Notes: generated by a model not told the origin, from the sequence alone. A stretch of 64,000 bases of DNA from Candidatus Woesebacteria bacterium (GCA_020060565.1 JAGVAE010000002.1:243270-307269); one strand, 5' to 3'. Shown: positions 5,550-64,000, numbered from the stretch's first letter. A program made the numbers and translations.

Positions 5550-6340
5550 TTAATTGGATGAAGTTTAGACCATTATATTTGGCTGTTTCTACTCTAGTTA
5601 TTGTGGGTGGGATAGTTAGTGTCGCCACTTGGGGACTTAAGTTTGGAATTGATTTTACAGGAGGAACTTTGATTGAATATAGACTTGCAAGTGGAGAAAA
5701 GAAGGTTGAAAGATATGGACAGCTTGAGGAAACCGAGCTTGAAAAAATTAGAAATGATTTCAAAAACGAAGGGATAGTGGAAGAAAGATTAGAGAGGGTA
5801 GGACCTACCATTGGACCAGAACTTGTTAAAAAAACAATTTATGGACTTGTTATTTCAATGAGTGCAATACTTCTTTGGATTGCCTATCAGTTTAAAAATA
5901 TGAAGTTTGGTATTTCAGCAACTGTGGCTACCATTCATGATATTTTGGTACTTGTTGGAGTTTATTCAATTGTAAGTCACTTTACAGGAGCTGAAGTTGA
6001 TTTTCTTTTTGTAACAGCGCTTCTTACTGTGATTTCATTTTCTGTTCATGACACTATTGTTGTTTACGATAGAATCCGTGAACTACACAAAAAATCTGGA
6101 GAGGATATTAAAGAATTGGCAAACCATGCCTTAAGTGAAACAATGACCAGATCAATTAATAATTCATTTACAATAATATTCATGTTGGTGGCTCTTATTC
6201 TTATGGGTGGGGAAACCACAAAATGGTTTTCAGTAGCACTTCTAATAGGGACCGTATCGGGAACTTATTCCTCACCATTTGTTGCAGTTCCAATACTTGT
6301 TACTTGGGACGAACTTCAGAAGAAGTTTAAGAAGAAATAG
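5546..6340 (+). CDS. secF: protein translocase subunit SecF
   Basis: The 264 aa product has the 6-TM SecF architecture with a DTIVVYDRIRE motif and lies immediately after secD. Confidence 0.85.
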   Translation: MINWMKFRPLYLAVSTLVIVGGIVSVATWGLKFGIDFTGGTLIEYRLASGEKKVERYGQLEETELEKIRNDFKNEGIVEERLERVGPTIGPELVKKTIYGLVISMSAILLWIAYQFKNMKFGISATVATIHDILVLVGVYSIVSHFTGAEVDFLFVTALLTVISFSVHDTIVVYDRIRELHKKSGEDIKELANHALSETMTRSINNSFTIIFMLVALILMGGETTKWFSVALLIGTVSGTYSSPFVAVPILVTWDELQKKFKKK

Positions 6341-37614: not shown

Positions 37615-37676
37615 ATAACAAAGGTATAGTCAGACGGTCAATTTTGCCACTTACGGTCGCTTGGTGTCCAATCTTG

Positions 37677-37747
37677 CTGCCCGACCTCGATTCGAACGAG
37701 GATTAAATGGTCCAGAACCATTTGGCCTACCGTTAGCCGATCGGGCA
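37677..37747 (-). tRNA. tRNA-Gln (anticodon CUG)
   Basis: A manual cloverleaf gives the 5' acceptor arm UGCCCGA paired with 3' UCGGGCA (U1:A72). The D-arm is GGCU/GGCC, the anticodon stem AAUGG/CCAUU, the anticodon loop UUCUGGA, the T-arm CCUCG-UUCGAAU-CGAGG and the discriminator G73. CCA is not encoded. Confidence 0.8.
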
Positions 37748-42193: not shown

Positions 42194-42269
42194 TGGTGAC
42201 CCCATTGGGACTCGAACCCAAGTTACCAGAATGAGAATCTGGTGTCCTAGACCGCTAGACGATGGGGCC
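42194..42269 (-). tRNA. tRNA-Glu (anticodon CUC)
   Basis: A manual cloverleaf gives acceptor GGCCCCA/UGGGGUC, anticodon stem CCAGA/UCUGG, anticodon loop UUCUCAU, T-arm UUGGG-UUCGAGU-CCCAA and discriminator A. The 3' CCA is encoded. Confidence 0.8.
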
Positions 42270-51387: not shown

Positions 51388-54048
51388 ATGAATATATTTA
51401 GTAAGATTCTTGATCTTAATGCTAGAGAGATTGGTAGACTTCAGAAAGTAGTTGAAAAAATAAATTCTTTTGAAAGTAGTACTAAAAAGTTGAAAGATTC
51501 TGATTTTAAGAAAAAAACGGAAGAGTTTAAAAAACGTTTGGAAAAAGGAGAATCTTTAGATGATATGCTTCCTGAGGCATATGCTTTAGTTCGTGAAGCA
51601 TCGTGGAGAGTTTTGGGTAAAAGGCATTTTGATGTTCAAATGATGGCTGCTACTGCTCTTTTTGAAGGAAAAGTTGCTGAACAAAAAACTGGAGAAGGTA
51701 AAACCCTGTCTGCTGTCCCCGCGCTTTATCTTAGAGCTCTCACGGGGCGTGGTGTCCATTTGGTTACTGTTAATGATTACCTAGCCAGGCGTGATGCTGG
51801 ATGGAACGGACCCGTATTTCATCTTTTAGGGCTTACCATAGGGTCAATTATTCAGGAAACAAAATCGTTTATTTTTGATCCAGATTTTAATGATTCAAGC
51901 CATGGAGATGAAAGACTTGCACATTTAAAACCGAGTGACAGAAAGGAAGCATATGGTTGCGACATTCTTTATGGAACCAATAATGAATTTGGTTTTGATT
52001 ATTTGAGGGATAACATGGTTTCCTCTTTGGCTGAGATGGTGCAAAGAGGACACTACTTTGCAATAGTTGATGAGGTTGATTCTATCTTAATTGATGAGGC
52101 CCGTACCCCACTTATTATTTCAGCACCTGATACAGAACCAACTCAGAAATATTACAAATTTGCATCCCTGGTTGAGAAACTTAATTCAGATACAGATTTT
52201 AAAATTGATGAAAAAGCTAAGAGCGCAACTCTAACGGAGACAGGAATTACTCGAGTAGAAAAGATACTCGGAGTTGATAATCTATATGAGAAAGATTTTG
52301 ACTCAATTCATCATATAGAAAATGCCTTAAGGGCAAAGACTCTTTATATGAAAGATAAGGATTACGTTGTTAAAGATAACCAGGTAACAATCGTAGATGA
52401 ATTTACAGGACGTCTCATGGTAGGGCGCCGCTGGAGTGATGGACTTCATCAGGCTGTTGAGGCAAAGGAAAATGTAACTATTCAACAAGAAAGTAAAACT
52501 CTAGCAACTATTTCATTCCAGAATTACTTCAGAATGTATGAACACTTAAGCGGTATGACGGGAACTGCTGCAACAGAAGCTGAGGAATTTAGAAAAATAT
52601 ATAAATTGGATGTTGTGGTTATTCCAACTCACAGGGATATGGTTAGAAAAGACTTACCTGACACTATTTACAAAACCTTGCGTGGTAAATATGGTGCAAT
52701 AGTTGAAGATATTGGAGAACTCCACAAGAAAGGTCAGCCGGTTTTGGTGGGTACTACTTCAATTGAAAAGAATGAAATAATTTCTGAATATTTAAAAAGA
52801 AAAAAGATTCCTCACAATGTTTTAAATGCAAAGAACCACGAAAGGGAAGCAGAAATTATTGCTGAAGCAGGGAAGCCTGGAGCTGTAACAGTTGCTACCA
52901 ACATGGCAGGACGTGGAGTTGATATTGTTTTGGGAGGGGCGGAAGGGAAAGAGCGTGAGAAAGTGGTGGGAGCAGGAGGACTCCATGTAATAGGAACGGA
53001 AAGGCATGAAGCAAGACGTGTAGACAATCAGTTAAGGGGTCGTGCGGGACGACAGGGGGACCCTGGAAGTTCTCGCTTTTATCTTTCTTTGGAGGACGAT
53101 CTTATGAGAATTTTCGGTGGGGAACAAATTAGTGGAATTATGGACAAACTGAGTCTTCCCGAGGATCAGCCGATTGAAAATGGACTTATTAGCCGTGCCA
53201 TTGAACAAGCTCAAGTAAAAGTAGAAGGATTTCATTTTGATATAAGAAAACGTTTGGTTGAATTTGATGATGTTGCCAATCAACAAAGGGAAATTATTTA
53301 CACACTAAGGCGCAGAATTCTTGATTCAGGAGATGTTAAGGAAGAGGTTGTTGGAAAACTGAAACATCAAATAGAAAAAGCAGTTAATCTAGAAATAGAT
53401 TTATCAATTGCTCTTGCTGAGATAGTTCCTTTTGATGATGCTTCACTCAAACGTATAAAAAGTGAGATTGAAAAACAGGAGAACAAACAAGAATTTTTGG
53501 AAAAAGTATTAATGGATATTTATGAAAAAAGGGAAAAAGATGTGGGAGAAAAGACAATGCGCGAAGTTGAAAAGTATGCATATTTAGGTTCTATTGATCA
53601 TCTTTGGATGGATCACATTGATCGCATTGATGATTTAAGAGAAGGGGTGACTCTTCGTGCATATGGACAAAGGGATCCTTTAGTTGAGTTTAAGAATGAG
53701 GCATATAACATGTTTGAAACTTTGGTGGATAAAGTTGATGAGGAATTGTCTCATAGAATTTTTAGAATAGGTGTCGCCATCCCACAACCTGAAATTCCAT
53801 TAAATCTTGCAAGAGAAAATATTGATCAATCTGATAGTACTGGTTTGGTTGAGCCATCTAACCACTCAGCCATTAAACCATCTCTCAAACTTGGTCGCAA
53901 CGATCCATGTTGGTGTGGGTCTGGTAAAAAATGGAAAAAGTGCCATATAAATTCTGTACCACAGAGTGGACAAGAAAAGTATTTATTTGATCTATACATT
54001 TCAGACCATAAGAAATGGGAGGATGAAGTTAAGAAACTAAAAAGTTAA
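51388..54048 (+). CDS. secA: preprotein translocase ATPase SecA (with about 33-aa tail after the C-terminal zinc-binding motif)
   Basis: DEAD-like motor motifs and the C-terminal CWCGSGKKWKKCH zinc finger are present. An extra ...INSVPQSGQEKYLFDLYISDHKKWEDEVKKLKS tail follows. Confidence 0.9.
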   Translation: MNIFSKILDLNAREIGRLQKVVEKINSFESSTKKLKDSDFKKKTEEFKKRLEKGESLDDMLPEAYALVREASWRVLGKRHFDVQMMAATALFEGKVAEQKTGEGKTLSAVPALYLRALTGRGVHLVTVNDYLARRDAGWNGPVFHLLGLTIGSIIQETKSFIFDPDFNDSSHGDERLAHLKPSDRKEAYGCDILYGTNNEFGFDYLRDNMVSSLAEMVQRGHYFAIVDEVDSILIDEARTPLIISAPDTEPTQKYYKFASLVEKLNSDTDFKIDEKAKSATLTETGITRVEKILGVDNLYEKDFDSIHHIENALRAKTLYMKDKDYVVKDNQVTIVDEFTGRLMVGRRWSDGLHQAVEAKENVTIQQESKTLATISFQNYFRMYEHLSGMTGTAATEAEEFRKIYKLDVVVIPTHRDMVRKDLPDTIYKTLRGKYGAIVEDIGELHKKGQPVLVGTTSIEKNEIISEYLKRKKIPHNVLNAKNHEREAEIIAEAGKPGAVTVATNMAGRGVDIVLGGAEGKEREKVVGAGGLHVIGTERHEARRVDNQLRGRAGRQGDPGSSRFYLSLEDDLMRIFGGEQISGIMDKLSLPEDQPIENGLISRAIEQAQVKVEGFHFDIRKRLVEFDDVANQQREIIYTLRRRILDSGDVKEEVVGKLKHQIEKAVNLEIDLSIALAEIVPFDDASLKRIKSEIEKQENKQEFLEKVLMDIYEKREKDVGEKTMREVEKYAYLGSIDHLWMDHIDRIDDLREGVTLRAYGQRDPLVEFKNEAYNMFETLVDKVDEELSHRIFRIGVAIPQPEIPLNLARENIDQSDSTGLVEPSNHSAIKPSLKLGRNDPCWCGSGKKWKKCHINSVPQSGQEKYLFDLYISDHKKWEDEVKKLKS

Positions 54049-54056
54049 TCTCTACT

Positions 54057-55640
54057 TTATTCGGAAAAATAGACATTAATCTCGTTATTACCTGCTTCTA
54101 CTTTTTCTAACACGGTTCTCAAAAATTGTTTCTTTCCGAGGAAATCTAAAGTCTTCCAAAACCCGTCAAAGTCTTTGACTGCTTTCCATATTTTTTGTTT
54201 ATCTATCTTTTGTGTTTTTTGATTTTCTTGTCCCTCCGAATATTTTGTCTTCTCCGCAAGTAAATCTTTTTCCAGTTCTCTTAGACGACCTATAGCTTCA
54301 CCATATTCTTCAATATTTATTAACTCTCTTTCAAATGCCTCTTGTTGCTTTTGCCTCATGATTGGAATTTTACTTAATTCTTTTTCAACTCTGTCTAAAG
54401 GAGACTTTCTAGTCTTGGCATCTAAAGGTTTGGACGTTTCTTCGCTTATCAATCTTCTCATGGCAGGGCTGTTAAAGTAATTCCTGACTTGAGAAATAAC
54501 AGAATTTTCTAATTTACTTGCACTCATTACCCTCTGTTGACATTTGATTTTGCCATACATAGTGCCTCCACAACGGTATTCAGCTGTCTCGATATCTTTC
54601 CAATTGGGATTTCTTTTTGAATTTTTGATTCTGCGTTTACAGTAAGTAACACCATTTCCACACCTAATACATTTTGCTATTCCTGTAAGTAACCCCTTGG
54701 ACATTTGAGCCTTACCCTTATATGTTGTTCCTCTTTCTTTTAGGACTTTTTGGACACTCTCAAACAATTTCTCATCCACAATAGGTTTATGAATACCTTT
54801 AACTTCAATTCCTTCATGACCTCTCAACTTTTTTTGCTTTGAAACTTCATAATCTGCATGTCTCCATCCCCACCTCACATATCCAGCGTATGTTTTATTT
54901 CTCAGAATGTAAGAGATTACTTGTGAACTCCAATACGAACCTTTCTTAGGAGGTGTTACTCCTTCCTCGTTAAATCGTAAGGCAATAGTTCTTTTACCAG
55001 CACCAGCCTCACTCATTTGGAAGATTCTTCTTACGGTCTCAGCTTTCTCTTCCTCAACCTCAACCGATCTCAGTACTTTACCGTGTTCATCAAGCGAACG
55101 AACAATTTTATAACCATAAGGAACTTGATTAGGAATCTTGCCATTTGCAGCGATAGCGTTTTTAGCAAGCATCATACGTCTTCTAATTTTGTTACGCTCG
55201 ATTTCGCTCATAACGTCACTTACGCCTTCTACAACCAATCCAAGGTCATCATCTATCGGATCGTATTTCTTCGGGTCTCTAGGTTCAATAGGCGTTGCCA
55301 GAGAGTATGTTTGAATATATTGTCGTTTTAATGCATCTCTAATTTGTGAAGCTTTTACTTTTGAACGAGCAAGTCGGTCAAAATCTTTGACAACTACAAG
55401 ATCAAATTTGCCCGCTCTTGCGTCTGCTAATAAATTCTGCAAACCTGGTCTTTCCTCTAAAAGGTGTCCAGATATACCAGCATCTTGATATTCACATACA
55501 ATCTTCCAACCTCGCTCAATACATATCTTTTTACATGCTCCCAATTGTTCTTCTAATGACGTTTTATCTTCTTTGGCTTGTTCTTGAGTAGAGACTCTTG
55601 TGTAAATAACTGCTCGTATGTGGCCTGTAGTTTCATTCAT
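54057..55640 (-). CDS. large serine recombinase (resolvase/invertase-family integrase with recombinase domain and zinc ribbon)
   Basis: The N-terminal resolvase catalytic domain is AVIYTRVSTQEQ. Recombinase and Cys-rich zinc-ribbon regions (CIRCGNGVTYCKRR...C) follow. The ATG at about 55640 (MNETTGH) was chosen. Confidence 0.8.
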   Translation of the reverse strand: MNETTGHIRAVIYTRVSTQEQAKEDKTSLEEQLGACKKICIERGWKIVCEYQDAGISGHLLEERPGLQNLLADARAGKFDLVVVKDFDRLARSKVKASQIRDALKRQYIQTYSLATPIEPRDPKKYDPIDDDLGLVVEGVSDVMSEIERNKIRRRMMLAKNAIAANGKIPNQVPYGYKIVRSLDEHGKVLRSVEVEEEKAETVRRIFQMSEAGAGKRTIALRFNEEGVTPPKKGSYWSSQVISYILRNKTYAGYVRWGWRHADYEVSKQKKLRGHEGIEVKGIHKPIVDEKLFESVQKVLKERGTTYKGKAQMSKGLLTGIAKCIRCGNGVTYCKRRIKNSKRNPNWKDIETAEYRCGGTMYGKIKCQQRVMSASKLENSVISQVRNYFNSPAMRRLISEETSKPLDAKTRKSPLDRVEKELSKIPIMRQKQQEAFERELINIEEYGEAIGRLRELEKDLLAEKTKYSEGQENQKTQKIDKQKIWKAVKDFDGFWKTLDFLGKKQFLRTVLEKVEAGNNEINVYFSE

Positions 55641-55719
55641 ATTTATATTTTTAATTTTAGTGTGGTACAGGCAAGAATACAACCTTGACAAATAACCAGC
55701 ACAGTTATAGATTTAAGTT

Positions 55720-55743
55720 AATTAGTCTCAGCCGACTAATTAG
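55720..55743. repeat. perfect 9-bp-arm inverted repeat TAATTAGTC-tcagcc-GACTAATTA in the integrase upstream region
   Basis: The repeat was seen directly in the sequence. It lies downstream of a TTGACA-like hexamer at 55686. Confidence 0.7.
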
Positions 55744-55828
55744 AGTTTTCAAGGTAACTACCTAATAAACAAAAAGGAGGAGAGGCCTCCTAACCAAAAG
55801 GTTAAAGCTTCATAAGCACCACTTGTCG

Positions 55829-55856
55829 GCTCAGCGGAAACGCTGGGCTTTTTTAG
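55829..55856 (+). terminator. hairpin GCUCAGCG-GAAA-CGCUGGGC plus UUUUUU (rho-independent terminator-like), preceded by a GAGGCCUC hairpin; possible small RNA 3' end
   Basis: The stem and loop were seen directly in the sequence. No upstream + strand CDS is present. Confidence 0.4.
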
Positions 55857-56032
55857 TGCTTATGAAAATAAAGGTAGTTATCAAACGGAAACCAAAAGTT
55901 GAAACCTTGCAGAAGGCTTTGAGTTTGTCGTTGGGATATCTACGCTCTCAATTGGAAAATTCCGATCTCCAAGTAGTTAAACCTACTGGTAGTTGAGAAA
56001 TTTTATCCTGTCCATAACAAACACAAAGCAAT

Positions 56033-56293
56033 ATGAACAATACGCAAAACAATACTTTCCAATCAACCGATCTCACATTTGTAGCATCCTGCCTACTTGT
56101 TAATAACGATATCCAGTTAATTGCTGTTACCCAGGATCATAAGGGAATTAGGGTTTTCCATCTTTCTCCAATCGGTAAAGTAAAGGGTTTACAAGTTAAT
56201 TATTCCCGTGGGGAAATTCTACTTTCTCCACTTGCTCTAGCTAATCAAATTAGGCAATTAAAAACCTGGCCAGTTACTAACTATGACTATTGA
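56033..56293 (+). CDS. DUF5659-like small phage/mobile-element protein
   Basis: FQSTDLTFVASCLLVNNDIQLIAV...GIRVFHL...LANQIRQLK matches the recalled DUF5659 pattern (TDLYLAxxLLxKGxxL...RVxFxF...FAxALxxLK). Confidence 0.45.
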   Translation: MNNTQNNTFQSTDLTFVASCLLVNNDIQLIAVTQDHKGIRVFHLSPIGKVKGLQVNYSRGEILLSPLALANQIRQLKTWPVTNYDY

Positions 56294-57968
56294 AGAATAT
56301 TTTAGAGAACACAGCTTAAAAGAAGAAACAGCCAAACAATTTGGTTGGACTTGGAATGATAATGTAATTACTATTCCTATTTGTGACCCAGATGGTAACC
56401 TTCTCTACAATCGCTACAGACACCTAAATTACCAAGAAGAGAAAGCTAAGGGTAATCCAAGGGCATCTAAATTCTCAACTGACCCTGGTTCTCATCCTGC
56501 CTTATATGCTGTACATCTCGTTAAAGAAAAAGATACTGTTGTTCTGTGTGAAGGAGAACCAGATTGTGTAAGGCTTTGGCAGGAAGGTATACCGTCTGTG
56601 TGTGGAACTTCTGGGGTTAGAACTGTTGATAAAAAATTTACTTTACCACTAAGAGGAAAGAAAGTATTAATTGTTTTGGATACTGATGAAGATGGCCTTG
56701 AATCTATTGAGAAGTATTACAACATTCTTGTTGAGATCGGAGCAGAACCTTATATAAAGGAAATCCCACCTGAATATAAAGATGTGAGTGAGTATTTTAC
56801 CAATAGTCATACAGGCGAAGACTTTCTGAATCTTACTGAACTTGATTTAGATGATTGGCATATAAAACACGAGCCAGAAGAATTTAAGTGGGAATCTGCT
56901 GCTGATATTAGACAAAAAGAATTGCCAAAGGAAAAGTGGCTTGTTAACAAAGCTATTCCAATAGAGGGATTTACATTTTTTATAGGGCCAGAGGCTTCTA
57001 GCAAGTCGTACCAGTCACTTTCTATTGCGAAATGTGTTGTCACTGGTGAGCCATGGCTGCCCCAAAAACAAGACGAAAATGGTCAGCCTCTATTTAGGGT
57101 ACTTAAAAGAACTAGGGTTTTAATAATGGATAAAGAGTCAACCAAGCGTAGGATTCAAGATAGGTTGAGAGGATATGACATAAACACCAAGGACATTGAG
57201 TTTCTGGCTTATCCACAGAAGTTTGAGATTGCAGAAGTAAACAATACCAGAGAGGCTACAGAGTCAGGATATACTAAATTTTTTGAAAATCTTGCTATTA
57301 AAGTCAAAAAAAATGGTGTTGGGTTAATTATTCTTGACTCGTTTACGGACTTTTTTATTGGTGAAGAAAATGATAGAGGACATGTCCAAAAATTTTTTGA
57401 TTCCTTCCGCCAGATGTTTCCAGGAATAGCTATACTTTGTTTACATCATTCTTCAAAAATGCAACCTGGACAAAGAAAGCCAACATCTCAACTGGGTAGA
57501 GGTTCAACAAATATTATGGCTCAAGCATATACAGCCTTTCATTTTGAGCCTATCCGTAAGTCAAAGACTGAATTTACCGTGGAGCAAACCAAAGCTGGAG
57601 ATTCTTTAAAGCTAAATAAGTTTAAGATTGAATCTCAAATTATAAATGACCCGCTGAATAAAGGTGAGACATTGGTAACGAGCTTCGTATATTTATGTGA
57701 AGTGGATGATAAAACAGAGATTACAAGTGAGGCTTTTGATAAAGCAAAGGAAATTTTAGAAGCTGAAGGAAAAATGTTCAGAAAAGAGTTTGAATCTGAA
57801 ATGAAAGCCGAAGGCTATTCACCAAAGACTGTTACAAATATATTAAAGAGGCTGAAAGATGACGGTTTAATTAAAACAGATAGGAGTAAAGTTGAGGGGA
57901 GAACTAAAGAGATAGAGATTACTTGGCAATATGAAGGTGAAGTTGTTACAGATGATTTAGGTTTATAA
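56283..57968 (+). CDS. primase-helicase-like replication protein (TOPRIM domain plus RepA/AAA_25-like ATPase)
   Basis: The TOPRIM motif is VVLCEGEPDCVRLW..., followed by DTDEDG. The C-terminal P-loop region FIGPEASSKSYQSLSIA has a deviant Walker A, and Walker B-like VLIMDKES and LIILDSF are present. Confidence 0.65.
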   Translation: MTIEEYFREHSLKEETAKQFGWTWNDNVITIPICDPDGNLLYNRYRHLNYQEEKAKGNPRASKFSTDPGSHPALYAVHLVKEKDTVVLCEGEPDCVRLWQEGIPSVCGTSGVRTVDKKFTLPLRGKKVLIVLDTDEDGLESIEKYYNILVEIGAEPYIKEIPPEYKDVSEYFTNSHTGEDFLNLTELDLDDWHIKHEPEEFKWESAADIRQKELPKEKWLVNKAIPIEGFTFFIGPEASSKSYQSLSIAKCVVTGEPWLPQKQDENGQPLFRVLKRTRVLIMDKESTKRRIQDRLRGYDINTKDIEFLAYPQKFEIAEVNNTREATESGYTKFFENLAIKVKKNGVGLIILDSFTDFFIGEENDRGHVQKFFDSFRQMFPGIAILCLHHSSKMQPGQRKPTSQLGRGSTNIMAQAYTAFHFEPIRKSKTEFTVEQTKAGDSLKLNKFKIESQIINDPLNKGETLVTSFVYLCEVDDKTEITSEAFDKAKEILEAEGKMFRKEFESEMKAEGYSPKTVTNILKRLKDDGLIKTDRSKVEGRTKEIEITWQYEGEVVTDDLGL

Positions 57969-58081
57969 CATTAGCAATAGTCGTGGTAACGTTGCCAATG
58001 TTTTTACTTGAGGCTAAATGGGGATGGTTAGTATTCGTTTTGGCATTTTGCTTGGTAAAAAGAAAGTTACTTTGGCACATT

Positions 58082-58103
58082 GGCATATACATATGTATAT
58101 GCC
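58082..58103. repeat. perfect 22-bp palindrome GGCATATACATATGTATATGCC within an imperfect palindrome of about 45 bp
   Basis: The palindrome was seen directly. It lies in the 513-bp AT-rich non-coding region between the primase-helicase gene and the XRE repressor gene. Confidence 0.85.
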
Positions 58104-58481
58104 ATGTGATTACCAAAGTAATCTTTACTCCAAATTTTCTTTTATTTGGAAAATTTTTGTGAGATATGGCGAGCAAGGAACAAATAGTGTGTGGCTGTAG
58201 ACTACTTATATTTTCTGTCCAGCCCCACCCCCATGTATTTTCTAATTACCCAGAGACATATCAAATAAAGATGTACTGGTAGGTATTTCTTGTAAGATGG
58301 GTGGAGTATCTGTGTTTAAAATTTATTGTGCAAGCTTGAGATGGGGGGGAGACGTGTGATTTATTCAGAAATTTAGAGAAGGGGTAGCAAGGCGAGTGAA
58401 TAACCCCTACCGATAGGAAATAGCCCTTTTCTACAGCACAAAATGGCAATTTCGTCCACTACTATAAATGTTTTACCTAAT

Positions 58482-58715
58482 TTAGAAAGGAAGAATATCA
58501 GATGATTTTACATTAAGTACTTTAACTACTTTATAGAAAACTCCTAGCGAAGGGTTTACTTCGCCCCTTTCTATCTTGCTGTAATAGCTTGAATTGATAC
58601 CGACACGCACAGCAACCTCAACCTGAGTTTGTTGCTGATCCTCTCGTACTTTTTTGATTCTTCTTCCAATCTCCTTCCTAATATTGGTTGTAATGTAGTA
58701 ATCAGCCATTAGCAC
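58482..58715 (-). CDS. XRE-family helix-turn-helix transcriptional regulator (Cro/CI-like)
   Basis: The HTH_3 pattern is QQQTQVEVAVRVGINSSYYSKIERGEVNPSLGVFYKVVKVL. Confidence 0.75.
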   Translation of the reverse strand: MLMADYYITTNIRKEIGRRIKKVREDQQQTQVEVAVRVGINSSYYSKIERGEVNPSLGVFYKVVKVLNVKSSDILPF

Positions 58716-58789
58716 TATTGTGCTAGAAATGATACAATTAGACTGTCTTTATAGTGCTAATTTAGCCTCAGTCTCAAGGCTAAAAAGTT

Positions 58790-59038
58790 TTGGCTCTGAA
58801 GGCAAAATTTATGAGAAATCTAATCAAAAATAAAAAGCAACAGTTCATCTGGGTAGCCACATTTTTATTTTTGTTTTACACAAATGCACCTTTCGTTTTT
58901 GCTTTTTGTGTACTTATGGGAGCTATCGCCTTGTCGTGGATTTTTTCTGATCGGATAACCATGAAAGAGCTTAGGAAACAGATGAGGGAATCTGAGAGAT
59001 GGGAAGTAAAAAGACAAAAGTTTATTACTGGAAAATGA
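58790..59038 (+). CDS. hypothetical small membrane protein
   Basis: The 82 aa product has two TM helices and lies divergent from the XRE gene. Confidence 0.35.
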   Translation: MALKAKFMRNLIKNKKQQFIWVATFLFLFYTNAPFVFAFCVLMGAIALSWIFSDRITMKELRKQMRESERWEVKRQKFITGK

Positions 59039-59517
59039 AAAAGATTGTATTAATATTTATAGCTCTAGTGTGGTCAGGTACAGTCTTTGCCTTTGGAATG
59101 AAAGTAGGCATAGATGGAACTGAAAAGAGATTGGCAGATCCAATACTCACCCATCCCAACTACACTGGCCAAGAAATATTGGATGCAGTCAATGAATATA
59201 GACAGACAAAGAAACTATCAACACTCAGACTAGATGAAGAACTTTGTAACAACGTAGTAAATAGGTATTTAGTCTTCAAATCTCCTGAGGCGGATAAAGA
59301 AGGTCATCCTGGTTTTGATGCTTGGGCTGATGCTGAAATAAAGAAGGGTTACAAATATGTTGGTGAAGTATTCTCTGGTGAGTTTACAAAAGAAGAAGTA
59401 ATGAGTGGTTGGAAGGGTTCACCAAGTCACAATGAAGCCTTGGTAAATCCAATCTACAACCGAGGCTGCTCATATGCTGGAGATTATGGAGTTGTCGTTT
59501 TACTTGGTGCTAAATAG
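59035..59517 (+). CDS. CAP/SCP (YkwD-like) domain protein, secreted
   Basis: A signal sequence is followed by a CAP-like region (GHPGFDAW...MSGWKGSPSHNEALVNPIYNRGCSYAGDYGVVVLLG). The ATG at 59035 overlaps the upstream stop (ATGA). It is a paralogue of 161-775. Confidence 0.5.
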   Translation: MKKIVLIFIALVWSGTVFAFGMKVGIDGTEKRLADPILTHPNYTGQEILDAVNEYRQTKKLSTLRLDEELCNNVVNRYLVFKSPEADKEGHPGFDAWADAEIKKGYKYVGEVFSGEFTKEEVMSGWKGSPSHNEALVNPIYNRGCSYAGDYGVVVLLGAK

Positions 59518-60120
59518 TTAGCTTGAATACTTATATACTGCTTTTACAACACCTTCTACCCTAAAATCTTCACCTGCAATAAATGGAGCGTAAGCTGTGT
59601 TGGTAGACCCTAATATTATTTGGTCTTGCCAGTGACTAAATTTTTTAACCATAGCTACCCCACCATCTACACAAATAACAATGTCACCATCTTTGGGAGA
59701 GTTAGTGGCTCTTGCGATGATGTAATCATTCTCTTTTATTAGTGGTGTCATGGAGTCCCCTCGTGCTTTCACCATAAAGGCCTCGCTTGAAGGGAAACCG
59801 AGAATCTTGGTACTTATTGGAATTCTATCAACAGGGTTACCGTCTAAGATTCTGCCATTGGGACCACATTGGGCCAACCCGTACACGTTGAGATAGGTAA
59901 TTTCTTTATCGGGATTGTCGGCTAGAATCTGATAGTCACCAGGATTGTTGGGATTCCTTCTTAAGAATCCTTTCCTTTCCAATTGCAATATATGGTGATG
60001 GACCACGCTAGGGGAAGAGGCTCCAATCCGATCTTGGATGTTCCTTATGCTTAGTCCTTCATCCTTCTCCGATTTTAGTAAGTCTAGTATCTTTTTTTGA
60101 CTGGGATGCAGATCGGGCAT
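59518..60120 (-). CDS. LexA-like repressor (N-terminal wHTH plus C-terminal S24 peptidase domain)
   Basis: The S24 catalytic Ser lies in ARGDSM and the Lys in VKKF. The N-terminal wHTH is LSIRNIQDRIGASSPSVVHHHILQLERKGFL. The putative cleavage region reads LAQCGPNG, with Cys-Gly instead of the usual Ala-Gly. Confidence 0.7.
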   Translation of the reverse strand: MPDLHPSQKKILDLLKSEKDEGLSIRNIQDRIGASSPSVVHHHILQLERKGFLRRNPNNPGDYQILADNPDKEITYLNVYGLAQCGPNGRILDGNPVDRIPISTKILGFPSSEAFMVKARGDSMTPLIKENDYIIARATNSPKDGDIVICVDGGVAMVKKFSHWQDQIILGSTNTAYAPFIAGEDFRVEGVVKAVYKYSS

Positions 60121-60154
60121 GGGTGTATTATGCAGTATAAGTTGACAAAAATCA

Positions 60155-60174
60155 AGAACATTATTGACTGTTCT
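60155..60174. promoter_or_regulatory. inverted repeat AGAACA-N8-TGTTCT overlapping a TTGACT-16-TACAAT promoter in the divergent lexA-like/cassette intergenic region (candidate operator)
   Basis: The repeat was seen directly. TTGACT lies at 60164-60169 and TACAAT about 60186-60191. The arrangement is GAAC...GTTC-like, as in Cheo-type LexA boxes, but with longer spacing. Confidence 0.4.
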
Positions 60175-60202
60175 AGTTTTTGTAGTACAATAGTTTTTAA
60201 TT

Positions 60203-61144
60203 ATGATTCAGGTCAAAAAGAATAAGATCAGAAACTTAGACAGATATTTTGGTTTCTTAAAAGAAGGAGAGCAAATCCGACTTGTTGTTAAATCTTCTGA
60301 TGTTCCTCAAGATAAGATTGTAAAGATAGGTTTTCCTACTAGTTTAGCCAATGGTCAAAAAGTATTACCATCTCCTTTGTTTGGATCTGTTTCTAGTTTT
60401 AATGCGTTGGGTAAAGAAATTGTTAGGAAAGATTTACCAATGGAAACCGCCTACAGAACTGTTGAGTGGCACTGGGAACAGTGGGATGGACCGTACAATA
60501 CAATTCCCATGTCCAAGTTAGTTGATGTTCCATATAAGAGATACCCAAGAGACTTTGTTCCTCCACCATCTAATGAGGTTGAAATTATTCAAAAGGACAA
60601 TGATTTATTCTTTTCTTCCGAGATATTGACGTTTACTCCTGGTGACAAGGAAAACATATTGCATGTAGCAAACTTATTTTTGGAAATCTTTGGTCAGTTT
60701 GAGATTGCCAGCCACAATTTAAGCAGTTATTACACCACTAAAGAGGAAAGACTAAATTGGCAAATTTTGCCTCCTGGTGAATATCCGTGGGAGAAGGTTG
60801 AAGAGAAGCTAAAGCCACTTATTGATTCATTGCCAAAAGGAAACAGACCATGGGCCAAGTACAGGGTGGAGAAAGTTAAGGAATATAAACCAGACTTTCA
60901 TGCTATAGGAACAGGAGGGTTTTGGGGATATGTTGTTTTTGGTTTTACGAGTAAAAATCTCTATGTTTTTGAATGCATAAAGTATGGTAATGCCACCTAT
61001 GTTTTTAACCAGGATTGGAAAGAACTATCTAAACTGACAAAGGCTCAGGTTATACAAGGGGATTTAGCCAAAGCTAGGGTGATTCATCATAAATCCTGGG
61101 TAAAACAGATAGATGAAATTCTCGGAGAAAAACAAAATGGATGA
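60203..61144 (+). CDS. hypothetical protein A (313 aa), first gene of uncharacterised cassette
   Basis: No known domain was recognised. The C-terminal region contains KPDFHAIG...VFECIKYG, which may be a PD-(D/E)xK-like arrangement. Confidence 0.5.
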   Translation: MIQVKKNKIRNLDRYFGFLKEGEQIRLVVKSSDVPQDKIVKIGFPTSLANGQKVLPSPLFGSVSSFNALGKEIVRKDLPMETAYRTVEWHWEQWDGPYNTIPMSKLVDVPYKRYPRDFVPPPSNEVEIIQKDNDLFFSSEILTFTPGDKENILHVANLFLEIFGQFEIASHNLSSYYTTKEERLNWQILPPGEYPWEKVEEKLKPLIDSLPKGNRPWAKYRVEKVKEYKPDFHAIGTGGFWGYVVFGFTSKNLYVFECIKYGNATYVFNQDWKELSKLTKAQVIQGDLAKARVIHHKSWVKQIDEILGEKQNG

Positions 61145-61820
61145 TGAGATTTTAGTTAACCCACTTACCGCTGTTAGGTTGTTTGCCAGAACATACCTAG
61201 CTTTGGGTGAAGAATCTCTTTTTAAAGATAGGAAATTTAAAATAACTAGAGAGGCTTGGATAGCATCCATGTTTCTTTTGGCTCTTAAAAAACACACAAC
61301 TCAGGATTGGTATTTTAAGCCAGAAACTAAGGATGGCTCGCCTGATTTCTATTGCTACACATTTATTGAAGACAAAAGTAAGGGAGGAAATATAAAACCT
61401 CAAATTAAACTTGAAGTTTTTGAATGGAGAAAAGAAGAAGATGAGGCTAATTTTATAGAGGCTTTAAAGAAAATTAAGCTTAATAAAGTTATTGATCCCC
61501 AAATAACAATATTATGTTATATCAGAAGAAATTCAGTAATACCTCCAGCTGTAGATTTGAATAAGAAACTTAAGGAAATCTCTCCTAAGGTGAAAGATAT
61601 CTGGTATCTGGGGGATGTGACACCAGATTCTAAAACTTGGAGGATCACCCAAATATACCCGAATACTTTAGCTATAGACCTGGACTATGATGAGGTTCTA
61701 TCAACTAAAGAGCAACACAGCTTCATCCATTCTTATAGAGGAAAGTCAGAACAACTGGAGTATGAGTCGACAGGTAAAACAGTTAGATTAACACCTGAAT
61801 TTGAATTGAAAGTTGAGTAA
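61137..61820 (+). CDS. hypothetical protein B (227 aa) with PD-(D/E)xK nuclease-like motif
   Basis: An ATGGATGA overlap links it to gene A. The segment ...EAWIASMFLLAL...DGSPDFYCYTFIEDKSKGG...KLEVFEW fits a helix then beta-strand D/PD/ExK restriction-endonuclease-like core. The assignment is inference. Confidence 0.5.
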   Translation: MDDEILVNPLTAVRLFARTYLALGEESLFKDRKFKITREAWIASMFLLALKKHTTQDWYFKPETKDGSPDFYCYTFIEDKSKGGNIKPQIKLEVFEWRKEEDEANFIEALKKIKLNKVIDPQITILCYIRRNSVIPPAVDLNKKLKEISPKVKDIWYLGDVTPDSKTWRITQIYPNTLAIDLDYDEVLSTKEQHSFIHSYRGKSEQLEYESTGKTVRLTPEFELKVE

Positions 61821-61825
61821 CAAAT

Positions 61826-62476
61826 ATGAGTACTGACCAAATAATCACTATTATTTTACAGACACTTGAAGTGCTTGGTGTTCTCGGAGCAACATATTTT
61901 GCAGCTAAGACTGTGAAGCTTTCGCACAATAGTTTGATTGAGCAAAGAGAAAGTGAAGAGCCTGAGGTGGTCATATTTGTAAAACAGTCCAACAATAGTC
62001 TTAATATCATAGATTTGGTCATTAGAAATGAGGGAATAAAAAGTGCTAGAAATATCAAATTTAAGGTGATAGGTAAAAACATAACTTCATTAAGCGACAG
62101 GAAGATTCGTGATATAAGTTTGCTTAAAAATGGAATAGCCTTATTGTCAGGAGGTCAAGAAGTTGTGCAACCCCTAGGTGTAATGCTGGGAGATGCCTTT
62201 AAAGAATATAAAAATGCAAACACCAAGGTACAAGTTACCTACTCAACATCAAATGGAAAGAAGAAGTCTGATTTATTTATTTTGGATTTCAAGGGCTTGA
62301 TTGATAGAAAACTTGGTAAAGACAATATTGAATCAATTGCCGACTCCCTTAAGGATATCCAAGATGAACTACACTCAATCAAAAAGGATATCCATTTGGT
62401 AGCGAACAATGGAATCACCGAACTATTTGCACAGCCAACTTATCCTGGGAAAAATGAAGTAACGCAGCAACTTTAA
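61826..62476 (+). CDS. hypothetical protein C (216 aa), N-terminal TM anchor plus soluble domain
   Basis: It lies 5 nt after gene B. The N-terminal helix is IITIILQTLEVLGVLGATYFAA. No domain was recognised. Confidence 0.5.
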   Translation: MSTDQIITIILQTLEVLGVLGATYFAAKTVKLSHNSLIEQRESEEPEVVIFVKQSNNSLNIIDLVIRNEGIKSARNIKFKVIGKNITSLSDRKIRDISLLKNGIALLSGGQEVVQPLGVMLGDAFKEYKNANTKVQVTYSTSNGKKKSDLFILDFKGLIDRKLGKDNIESIADSLKDIQDELHSIKKDIHLVANNGITELFAQPTYPGKNEVTQQL

Positions 62477-62530
62477 AGTTATTAATAAAGTGAGAGCTTT
62501 ATAAAAAGACTCACAAGTCTTAGAATTAAA

Positions 62531-64000
62531 ATGATGACAAAGCAATTAGACCTACTTAATACTCAAGATAAAAAGAAACCTTGGTCATCTTCTTTAAGGA
62601 AAGCATTTAATTTTTCAAGAACTTCAGGATGGCCAGATGTTTTTTCTCAACAGCTAAGGAAATGGTCTAAGGACAATAAGATAGCTATTAACACCTTAAG
62701 CCTGTTCTCTGGAGGTGGAGGGCTAGATATTGGATTCCATGATGCAGGATTCAAGATAAAAGAGATGGTTGAGATAGAAGAGAAATATGTAAAAACTCTT
62801 TTGCACAATAACAAAAATTGGTTTGATGACTCAAAGATTAATTGTGTAGATATTAGAGAGTATAAACCAGAAAACCTCAAGGTAGATTTCATAATTGGAG
62901 GGCCTCCATGTCAAACCTTCTCTGCTGCTGGTAGAAGAGCAAAGGGGGTAATGGGAATAGACGATCCAAGAGGTAATCTTTTTAAGGAGTATGTACGACT
63001 TTTACAAACTTTAAAGCCAAAGGGATTTTTGTTTGAAAACGTATATGCATTAATTGGGGCACAAAAAGGGAAGCCCTGGAAGCTTATATTAGAAGGATTT
63101 GATTCCGTAGGATATAAAGTACATTATAAAGTTTTGGATGCAGCTGACTACGGAGTACCCCAGCATCGGGAAAGAATTATTATTGTAGGAATAAGGAAAG
63201 ATTTAAATAAGTCGTTTAAGTTTCCATATCCGCTTTGTGGACCAGACTCTACAGAAGAAGAACCCCATTACTCTGCAAAAGAAGCGATAGGTGGTGTGAG
63301 ATTAGACGAAAAGATTAAGCCCGTTAATGGTAAGTATGGCCACTTATTAGACGGTATTCCACCAGGATTAAATTATAGTTTCTACACAGACAAGATGGGA
63401 CACCCCAACCCTGTATTTGGTTGGAGAAGTAAGTTTTCTGATTTTCTTTATAAAGCTGATCCAAATAAACCCGTAAGAGCGATTAAAGCTCAAGGGGGAC
63501 AATATACTGGTCCTTTTAGTTGGGAAAACCGTTTTTTTCATTTATCTGAACTTAAAAGATTGCAAACATTTCCTGACAACTATGAAATTGTTGGGTCAAG
63601 GAATGTTGTTGTAGAGCAAATAGGAAATTCAGTACCCCCGCAATTTGCAAGAATACTTGCTTTATCAGTATTGGATCAAATCTTTGATGTAAAACTTCCA
63701 CTTAATATTCCATATATGGAGGATAGTATCCAGCTTGGATTTCGCACAAGGACACGAGAGTTGACGAAAGAATATGAGCAAAAAGCCAGAGAAGCTATAA
63801 AACTCATGGTAAAAAGTGATGGACCGAAGTCTAGAAGGATACCGCAGACAAAAGACATAAGGTACTTGTTGTTAAATAAAATGAAGTGGCTTAAGAAAAA
63901 AGTTGATGATGCTACTGAGATTATAGTCAAACATGCAGAAAAAGAAGGTGATGTCTGGGAGATTACTGCAAGCAATAAAAATATTGAAAATAAAAAGATT
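62531..64000 (+). CDS. DNA (cytosine-5)-methyltransferase (3' end outside window)
   Basis: This ORF is absent from the supplied six-frame track. The frame is open to the window end. Motif I is LFSGGGGLDIGF, motif IV GGPPCQTFS, motif VI ENV, motif VIII QHRERIIIVG and motif X GNSVPPQFA. A further C-terminal extension follows. Confidence 0.85.
   Translation, partial: MMTKQLDLLNTQDKKKPWSSSLRKAFNFSRTSGWPDVFSQQLRKWSKDNKIAINTLSLFSGGGGLDIGFHDAGFKIKEMVEIEEKYVKTLLHNNKNWFDDSKINCVDIREYKPENLKVDFIIGGPPCQTFSAAGRRAKGVMGIDDPRGNLFKEYVRLLQTLKPKGFLFENVYALIGAQKGKPWKLILEGFDSVGYKVHYKVLDAADYGVPQHRERIIIVGIRKDLNKSFKFPYPLCGPDSTEEEPHYSAKEAIGGVRLDEKIKPVNGKYGHLLDGIPPGLNYSFYTDKMGHPNPVFGWRSKFSDFLYKADPNKPVRAIKAQGGQYTGPFSWENRFFHLSELKRLQTFPDNYEIVGSRNVVVEQIGNSVPPQFARILALSVLDQIFDVKLPLNIPYMEDSIQLGFRTRTRELTKEYEQKAREAIKLMVKSDGPKSRRIPQTKDIRYLLLNKMKWLKKKVDDATEIIVKHAEKEGDVWEITASNKNIENKKI

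Follow-up and report, generated by a model that had tools for sequence, protein, structure and literature searches.

A probable serine-integrase element at the 3' end of secA in Candidatus Woesebacteria and the SecA tail encoded by it

The DNA analyzed here (the window) is a stretch of 64,000 nucleotides from Candidatus Woesebacteria (GCA_020060565.1, JAGVAE010000002.1:243270-307269), a host group of the Candidate Phyla Radiation (CPR)/Microgenomates, in which secA meets the gene of a large serine recombinase (LSR) at what is very probably the left junction of an integrative element. The secA gene (51388-54048, plus strand) codes for 886 amino acids with all SecA Pfam domains, the SEC-C domain being located at residues 837-853. 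Its host part (51388-53946, plus strand) extends through the His codon of the SEC-C zinc motif (…CWCGSGKKWKKCH) and is followed in frame by an element-encoded tail of 33 codons and a stop codon (53947-54048, plus strand; INSVPQSGQEKYLFDLYISDHKKWEDEVKKLKS). The LSR gene, which codes for a putative integrase of 527 amino acids (54057-55640, minus strand), reads toward secA, and the stop codons of the two convergent genes (secA, 54046-54048; recombinase, 54057-54059) are separated by a spacer of 8 bp (54049-54056). A first-pass annotation of this stretch had given the same 8 bp between the secA stop and the recombinase end, which is exact by the stop coordinates, and a SecA tail of about 33 amino acids; exactly 33 residues follow …CWCGSGKKWKKCH (53947-54045). 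Rfam searches and promoter and terminator scans yielded nothing relevant at the junction of secA and the recombinase gene. The G + C profile does not differ between element and host, and base composition therefore is uninformative here.

Within a longer open reading frame (ORF; 54057-55691, 544 codons), the most likely recombinase start is the ATG at position 55640, in agreement with its homologs, rather than an upstream TTG. The database entry P0121, which is 100% identical to the window recombinase and has a length of 527 amino acids, begins at this ATG. The protein contains a Resolvase domain (PF00239; E = 2.3e-29, residues 27-185 of the 544-codon ORF), a recombinase domain (PF07508; E = 4.5e-22), and a recombinase zinc ribbon (Zn_ribbon_recom, PF13408; E = 1e-6, 29.3 bits against a cut-off of 25.3), and it is matched by PHROG family 95, "integrase" (E = 3e-101). 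The recombinase domain and the C-terminal zinc ribbon distinguish it from the small resolvases and invertases. The motif Y-x-R-V-S-T-x-E-Q is present, and both the catalytic Ser17 (527-amino-acid numbering) and the zinc-ribbon residues C324, C327, C357, and C367 are invariant in a family alignment of 21 sequences. The closest solved structures are those of SPbeta SprA/YokA (9dxh, 9dxd; E = 7e-19 over residues 13-439), and the C-terminal part of the protein matches the A118 integrase structures 4kis and 6dnw. Judged by these domains and motifs, the window recombinase has the full architecture of a serine integrase. A scan of the 2.9 million viral contigs in IMG/VR revealed no close relative of the recombinase; the recombinase alone gave no match, and the best match of the family alignment was 32% identical.

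A search with SecA likewise assigns the window to Woesebacteria, the host being a tiny bacterium of the groundwater type. Relatives of the window genome reveal the state of the unoccupied site. If the tail were derived from the element, relatives without the element should lack it, as had been proposed in the first-pass annotation, and comparison of the SecA C-termini agreed with this expectation: 115 of the 120 closest SecA proteins terminate with CH-[YFW]P and few further residues, typically CHYPQLPPN, and do not have the window tail. The same holds for the two closest relatives, the element-free loci L004 and L005 with SecA bodies 93% and 89% identical to that of the window, which both carry the native tail. 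In these two the native tails read YPQLPTK and YPQLPPN, and 18 bp after secA the genes for FKBP_C, TGT, LytR_C, and a release factor begin, one of the two loci having an additional PBP gene between FKBP_C and TGT. The native SecA end lost in the window comprises 5-8 residues of the YPQLPPN type, which itself is a natural end of 7 residues. Upstream of secA, the window and the two closest relatives have the gene order NUDIX-MgsA-DUF8173-SpmSyn-secA in common (MgsA denoting an MgsA-like AAA protein and SpmSyn a spermine-synthase-like protein). None of the genes for FKBP_C, TGT, LytR_C, or the release factor was found anywhere in the 64-kb window. Since the upstream order is kept and the downstream genes are absent, synteny breaks exactly at the end of secA; the intact neighborhood that had been named as an argument against integration thus is not what the comparison revealed, the order being broken only downstream of secA. 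A genome scan with a TGT alignment yielded 35 Woesebacteria-type loci.

Relatives of the recombinase occupy the 3' end of secA in all seven cases that were inspected (7/7), which stem from Woesebacteria and Daviesbacteria and include one truncated remnant (L001). In the six relatives that were looked up individually the gene is convergent with secA, at a distance of 5-20 bp or, in one case, with an overlap of 4 nt. The identity to the window recombinase is 84% for P0122 (L090; the contig stops before the far junction), 80% for P0125 (L206; the element contains a methyltransferase, a SacI-like restriction endonuclease, and Vsr), 79% for P0126 (L207), 78% for P0128 (L086-L089; both junctions are visible, 11.1 kb), 49% for the Daviesbacteria protein P0180 (L208/L209), and 42% for P0226 (L211/L212; the SecA tail consists only of MNGN and a stop). 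Wherever the identity of the recombinase is at least 78%, SecA carries a tail of 33-34 amino acids homologous to that of the window, and a tail of the window type recurs only where a related LSR, or the remnant in L001, adjoins secA. In L090 the SecA body is only 57% identical to that of the window, with 88% identity of the tail and 84% of the recombinase; in L086 the SecA body is 71% and the tail 76% identical. By these comparisons the identity of the SecA tail follows the recombinase and not the SecA body of the host. The remnant L001 (6785-10690; GCA_021790215.1) was identified via its SecA with a similar tail. It is a 3.9-kb island in which only the last 65 codons of the recombinase are left (E = 7e-10, residues 482-525), with an AEP-TOTE/ResIII primase-helicase gene and an AAA_14/DUF4143 gene beside them, and SecA keeps an intact INREPQ-type tail of 32 amino acids; L001 thus is a decayed, immobilized element. 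A protein search with the zinc motif plus tail returned only 26 short fragments; P0250 has a second INREPQ-type tail.

The far junctions of two related elements complete this picture. In L086 (Woesebacteria GCA_001792335.1) the far junction is located 11.1 kb from secA, reads …FLCHFKKCH/YPLLG followed by a stop codon, and is succeeded by the host gene ZnuA. In L001 it reads …HFKHCH/YPQYG followed by a stop codon, and one gene (DUF2127) separates it from FKBP_C and TGT. As read from their sequences, both are displaced native secA ends joined to the other arm of the element, and such displaced ends are predicted by integration into secA. The earlier proposal that the element was integrated at the 3' end of secA, with the reading frame restored by element sequence, thus was corroborated both by a tail that tracks the recombinase and by the displaced ends in relatives. 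A separate observation concerns the SecA protein P0098 (L210:12570-13770), which ends with CH-MYSDLARK and whose gene is separated from the downstream FKBP_C by a lone Fic-domain gene. No clear displaced secA end was seen in L210, only a short ATGTATAG repeat that flanks the Fic gene; the SecA protein P0022 has a comparable end (CH-MNSNLAQK).

Alignment of the attL, attR, and attB sites of related elements indicated that attP and attB share only AAR-NNN-TGY-CAY, which are the K-x-C-H codons of the SEC-C motif. In the window, the corresponding 12-bp block AAA AAG TGC CAT (K-K-C-H), positioned by homology, is located at 53935-53946 (plus strand). To the right of this block the host sequence continues with TATCCNCAR… and the element with ATAAATTCTRTACCRCA…. 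Six related elements, among them the Daviesbacteria element with the 49%-identical recombinase, have this P' arm in conserved form. The approximate attL, made up of the B arm of the host and the P' arm of the element (ATAAATTCTGTACCACAG…), covers positions 53910-53972 if typical sizes of serine-integrase att sites are assumed. The attP sites reconstructed for the two divergent elements L086 and L001 lie approximately 100 bp beyond the recombinase stop; in both, dyad symmetry is best (14/22 and 12/22 matches, respectively) when centered on the AA of the Lys codon. The crossover would have to lie inside the 12-bp block, and its central dinucleotide is likely the AA at 53935-53936. The consensus of 22 unoccupied attB sites is TGGAA..A.TG.CAY/TATCC.CA, and a target conserved to this extent can account for a single integrase clade being able to act in hosts with up to 45% difference between their SecA bodies. 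A repeat search over 53800-64000 found no copy of the junction sequence but only short chance matches, as is to be expected from a serine integrase, which leaves no long direct repeat. The suggestion of the first-pass annotation to look for a direct repeat of 53940-54060 as attR therefore named the wrong signature: only the core of about 12 bp would be duplicated, and the true signature of attR is the element arm followed by the displaced native YP…stop.

The region from approximately 53,935 to beyond 64,000 is, with high probability, the left part of an integrative element that was inserted by its own LSR into the last codons of secA. The free circular element would carry attP about 100 bp downstream of the recombinase stop (predicted attP: P arm/ATAAATTCTGTACC…), and the recombinase would cut attP and attB (predicted attB: secA…CAT/TATCC…FKBP) at the central dinucleotide in the 12-bp block and swap the arms. 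At attL, which is seen in the window, secA retains its zinc motif and is read 33 codons into the DNA of the element (53947-54045), with the native end cut off. At attR, which would be situated past the window, the native secA end would adjoin FKBP_C and TGT; the right boundary expected there should consist of an element arm like …CATTTCAARNANTGYCAY, then TAYCCN… (YP…stop), FKBP_C, and TGT. In this way, an essential protein of the host receives a defined C-terminal extension from the element. The copy in the window may still be mobile at present.

The tail itself carries a signature of selection. In comparisons of five elements, which were pairwise and not phylogenetically corrected, the proportion of synonymous differences (pS) in the tail was 0.6-1.0 and that of non-synonymous differences (pN) 0.06-0.26; for the same pairs, the recombinase gene had a pS of about 0.72 and a pN of about 0.11. 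Between the window and L090, 11.5 synonymous and 4.5 non-synonymous differences were counted in 30 codons of the tail (pS 0.73, pN 0.06; Fisher p = 1e-8). The variable sites of the tail are distributed over the three codon positions as 14, 6, and 22, and selection is likewise evident when only codons 9-30 are considered, which lie beyond the arm that the recombinase likely binds. Of the six reading frames, only that of secA lacks stop codons in all six elements, the other frames being interrupted in at least four. The conserved residues follow the pattern IN[SR]xPQ…E[KR]..F..[LM]Y..[DN][HY]..W. By these substitution patterns, the tail is evidently real coding sequence kept by purifying selection. 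More distant elements supply only 4-7 residues (LNREPQG or MNGN, each followed by a stop), and the long tail thus is an innovation of one subclade. Two tail helices were predicted by AlphaFold2 (residues 861-872 and 874-885; pLDDT about 77-79), and a search of the PDB with the tail found nothing meaningful. The tail may be a harmless but structurally constrained cap, or it may act as a modulator of SecA.

Beyond the recombinase, the visible part of the element contains genes for replication and regulation as well as putative cargo. The first ORF (56033-56293, plus strand) overlaps the start of the primase gene by 11 nt and codes for a protein of 86 amino acids that belongs to the conserved core: homologs with 68-73% identity are found at the same position in L206, L207, L086, and L090, and they share a strongly conserved YSRGEILLSPLALANQIRQLKTWP segment. 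The ORF had no Pfam match even at E ≤ 5 and no PHROG match, and its product is, speculatively, a candidate accessory or directionality factor. The label DUF5659 (PF18903) that had been attached to this ORF in the first-pass annotation did not hold, given the missing Pfam match at that threshold and the lack of any BLASTP alignment (E ≤ 100) to the DUF5659 protein of L208. The rest of the earlier gene list, a primase-helicase, two repressors, a CAP-domain protein, and a cassette with a methyltransferase, was recovered by Pfam, PHROG, and PADLOC. The primase-helicase gene (56283-57968, plus strand) codes for Toprim_2 and AAA_25 (RepA/DnaB-like) domains and a C-terminal winged helix-turn-helix (PHROG 239, 47); related elements have a primase-type gene at the same position (Toprim_2/AAA_25 or DnaG zinc ribbon/DUF3987). 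It is followed by a gene for an XRE-family helix-turn-helix (HTH) regulator (58482-58715, minus strand; HTH_3, E = 1.6e-12, and PHROG transcriptional repressor families), a gene for a CAP/SCP-domain protein with a hydrophobic N-terminus (58999-59517, plus strand; PF00188, E = 1.8e-6, 29.2 bits against a cut-off of 21.1), and a gene for a LexA/CI-like self-cleaving repressor (59518-60120, minus strand; LexA DNA-binding domain and Peptidase_S24; PHROG 4, E = 1e-23). From its domain and N-terminus, the CAP-domain protein is probably exported cargo. Three co-oriented ORFs of 313, 235, and 216 amino acids (60203-62476, plus strand) precede the gene of a C5 cytosine methyltransferase (62531-64000, plus strand; DNA_methylase, E = 3e-67; PADLOC MTase_II, E = 1e-82), which continues past the end of the window. 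None of the three ORFs exceeded a Pfam threshold or had a counterpart in PADLOC; the third hits two PHROG families, both without assigned function. When metagenomes were scanned with the truncated methyltransferase, the best match reached 61% identity. The methyltransferase is cargo and probably part of a restriction-modification module. L206 (1-5146) contains genes for a 636-amino-acid methyltransferase, a SacI-like restriction enzyme, a Schlafen/AlbA_2 protein, and Vsr, and by analogy the three ORFs of the window together with genes past 64000 may form a restriction-modification or defense module.

The core that is conserved among the elements consists of the recombinase, the 86-amino-acid protein, a primase or primase-helicase, and an HTH regulator. 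The cargo differs between elements: in the window it is made up of the CAP-domain protein, the LexA-like repressor, the three ORFs, and the methyltransferase, in L206 of restriction-modification genes, and in L086 of HigB with an M78 peptidase, a Beta_protein gene, and queuosine-salvage genes. The complete element in L086, of 11.1 kb, has no capsid, portal, tail, large-terminase, or lysis genes; it does have a small-terminase-like GP3_package gene and a P4 cII-like gene. Of the gene set of PICI/P4-like phage satellites (integrase, repressor, primase-replicase, and genes that redirect packaging, in islands of about 10-15 kb free of structural genes), the window has an integrase, repressors, and a primase-helicase. 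In the visible part of the window element, which amounts to approximately 10 kb, capsid, portal, tail, large-terminase, and lysis genes are absent, no PHROG structural family was matched, and no packaging gene was seen, the GP3_package and Phage_P4_cII matches being confined to L086. The island in L211/L212 (4523-7581) has a tyrosine integrase gene (Phage_integrase) approximately 370 bp upstream of the serine recombinase gene, and it also holds an AbiEii toxin gene and a gene for a true DUF5659 protein. Elsewhere in the window, ARAGORN detected a tRNA-Gln(CTG) gene at 37676-37747; the Rfam tRNA model at its gathering threshold reports only a tRNA-Glu gene at 42197-42269.

The presence of an integrase, a CI/LexA-like repressor, an XRE regulator, and a primase-helicase, which together resemble a typical phage early region, and the fact that the window ends within cargo could also mean that the visible 10 kb belong to a complete temperate phage, of which they would form the end with the lysogeny and replication functions, its structural genes lying beyond the window. 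This is unlikely, however, because the only complete relative measures 11.1 kb and is devoid of capsid, tail, and lysis genes, because the window part of the element has no PHROG structural match, and because the best IMG/VR recombinase reaches no more than 32% identity. A small replicative, possibly satellite-like, integrative island is therefore favored over a full prophage. Another possibility is that the tail is element DNA and its peptide an irrelevant read-through product, with conservation acting on the DNA as a P' arm or as a terminator of the convergent genes. The first 6-8 codons of the tail ([IL]N[SR]xPQ) are kept even in the Daviesbacteria element with its 49%-identical recombinase and its tail of 7 amino acids, which fits a protein-binding arm of DNA, and the tails of 4-7 amino acids that suffice in the distant elements imply that a long tail is not required for SecA. 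Past codon 8, however, synonymous sites are saturated and amino acids kept, the changes concentrate at third positions (14/6/22), the pN/pS of the tail equals that of the recombinase gene, and in six elements the frame is uninterrupted for 32-34 codons. The tail even persists in L001 although the recombinase there has decayed to 65 codons, and a purely DNA-level conservation thus appears quite improbable. It is far less probable still that the 33-amino-acid extension is a native, lineage-specific SecA tail with a recombinase adjoining by chance. Such a tail would agree with the uninterrupted reading frame, beyond which nothing speaks for it except that unusual short tails of other kinds occur in a few SecA relatives (CHMNSNLAQK, CHMYSDLARK), and it is contradicted by the discordance between tail identity and SecA-body identity, the missing tail in the closest relatives, the displaced native ends at the far junction of related elements, and the occupation of the same site by all seven inspected recombinase relatives. 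The least probable explanation is an assembly chimera in the metagenome-assembled genome. Its source is an uncultured CPR organism, and such assemblies can be broken or joined at mobile elements, but the identical junction of secA, tail, and recombinase recurs in independent NCBI, JGI, and ENA assemblies (L086-L090, L206-L209, L211-L212), in every one of which the reading frame is continuous across the junction.

Some observations do not fit easily with integration by the LSR as outlined above, or weaken parts of it. The contig L110 (CAZBTH010000006.1) contains two tandem displaced ends (1969-2010 and 6157-6195) at a distance of 4.2 kb, which read …DCHFKMCH/YPKLSGD and …HFKQCH/YPKPPN, each followed by a stop codon, and which both are located upstream of FKBP/TGT; the genes around them are ORFs without assigned function, an APH-type kinase gene, and a Bro-N gene. 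From this arrangement it seems that the secA site was used more than once and that islands accreted there; it is not obvious how this could happen under the simple serine-integrase model, in which attL and attR do not serve as substrates. At L111 (6253-7900), secA has a native-looking end (CHYPQYG followed by a stop), and a decayed copy is found 1.6 kb further on, after two ORFs without assigned function and right at the start of FKBP (…FDKCFKHCH/YF-stop-YG-stop); either the arm of an element mimics the native tail here, or a different mechanism of integration was at work. The scan of viral contigs with the recombinase and the family alignment did not find a free attP. The attB sites show no clear dyad axis at the position proposed for the crossover, and the assignment of the crossover thus is drawn only from the dyad symmetry of attP. 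The right junction of the window's own element lies beyond 64000, outside the sequence examined. Finally, the AlphaFold2 model of full-length SecA is poor (alignment of 45 sequences; pLDDT 58.8, pTM 0.35), and only the local tail helices are used.

Integration by an LSR at the 3' end of a housekeeping gene has known counterparts, of which Bxb1 in groEL1 and SCCmec in rlmH are the nearest in concept. The serine integrase of the mycobacteriophage Bxb1 integrates into the 3' end of groEL1. As in the window, an LSR thereby acts on the 3' end of a conserved housekeeping gene, the product of which receives an altered C-terminus, and the two systems are also alike in their minimal common core, the absence of long direct repeats, and the location of the integrase gene beside attP. 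Unlike in Bxb1, the target here consists of the SEC-C zinc-motif codons of secA in CPR bacteria with the motif being preserved, the replacement tail of 32-34 amino acids is conserved under purifying selection instead of being an incidental truncation or alteration, and the element looks like a small replicative island (about 11 kb in one complete relative) and not like a 50-kb phage. SprA (YokA) of SPbeta has the same order of catalytic domain, recombinase domain, and zinc ribbon and also integrates within a protein-coding gene, but its homology to the window recombinase is distant. SPbeta splits spsM in the middle of the gene and thereby inactivates it until developmental excision, whereas the element described here would keep secA functional by means of a new end. 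No directionality factor similar to SprB/YotN was identified in the window element. SCCmec is inserted by CcrAB at the extreme 3' end of rlmH (orfX) and likewise is a serine-recombinase island at the end of a housekeeping gene whose ORF is preserved, with reuse of the site and tandem accretion comparable to L110. In contrast to the system described here, Ccr belongs to a different, often two-subunit subfamily, the SCCmec site is repeated at both ends, and the host protein does not acquire an extended fusion tail. Tyrosine-integrase islands in tRNA or tmRNA genes and those with dusA-specific integrases (PMC4482086) restore the end of their target gene. The dusA and tRNA islands resemble the secA elements in that a clade is dedicated to one conserved gene and a replacement gene end is carried along, but their chemistry is that of tyrosine recombination, a long identical core is duplicated as direct repeats, and essentially the same sequence is restored; the secA elements share no more than 12 bp with their target and restore the gene end with a different and longer peptide. 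In the literature searched, no description of secA as target of a serine integrase or of such elements in Patescibacteria was found. The mechanism thus is that of known serine integrases, and the differences are the target, the CPR host, and the selected replacement tail.

These elements reveal an integrase clade (42-100% identity) that is dedicated to one very conserved secA site with a 12-bp core in Woesebacteria and Daviesbacteria, hosts with tiny genomes, few described mobile elements, and no genetic tools. Since secA and its zinc motif are universal in the CPR, the set of attP, attB, and integrase could become a tool for site-specific integration in these organisms. For genome annotation, a SecA that ends with CH-IN[SR]xPQ… rather than CH-YP… can serve as marker of an occupied site. 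The locus is a clean natural case of a mobile element that gives a selected C-terminal extension to an essential host protein, and it raises the question of which role the extreme C-terminus of SecA has in organisms without SecB. That the tail is a functional module by which the element reprograms the essential SecA motor is a tentative idea, with the odds rather against it. If it were true, the two-helix extension after the zinc domain could alter the autoinhibition of SecA or its binding of partners, or it could give a protein of the element a handle on SecA; with either effect, element cargo (the CAP-domain protein, for instance) might be exported more readily, or rival elements and phages might be kept out. 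The editing of the C-terminus of a core housekeeping protein would then be part of the lifestyle of a mobile element across many CPR lineages.

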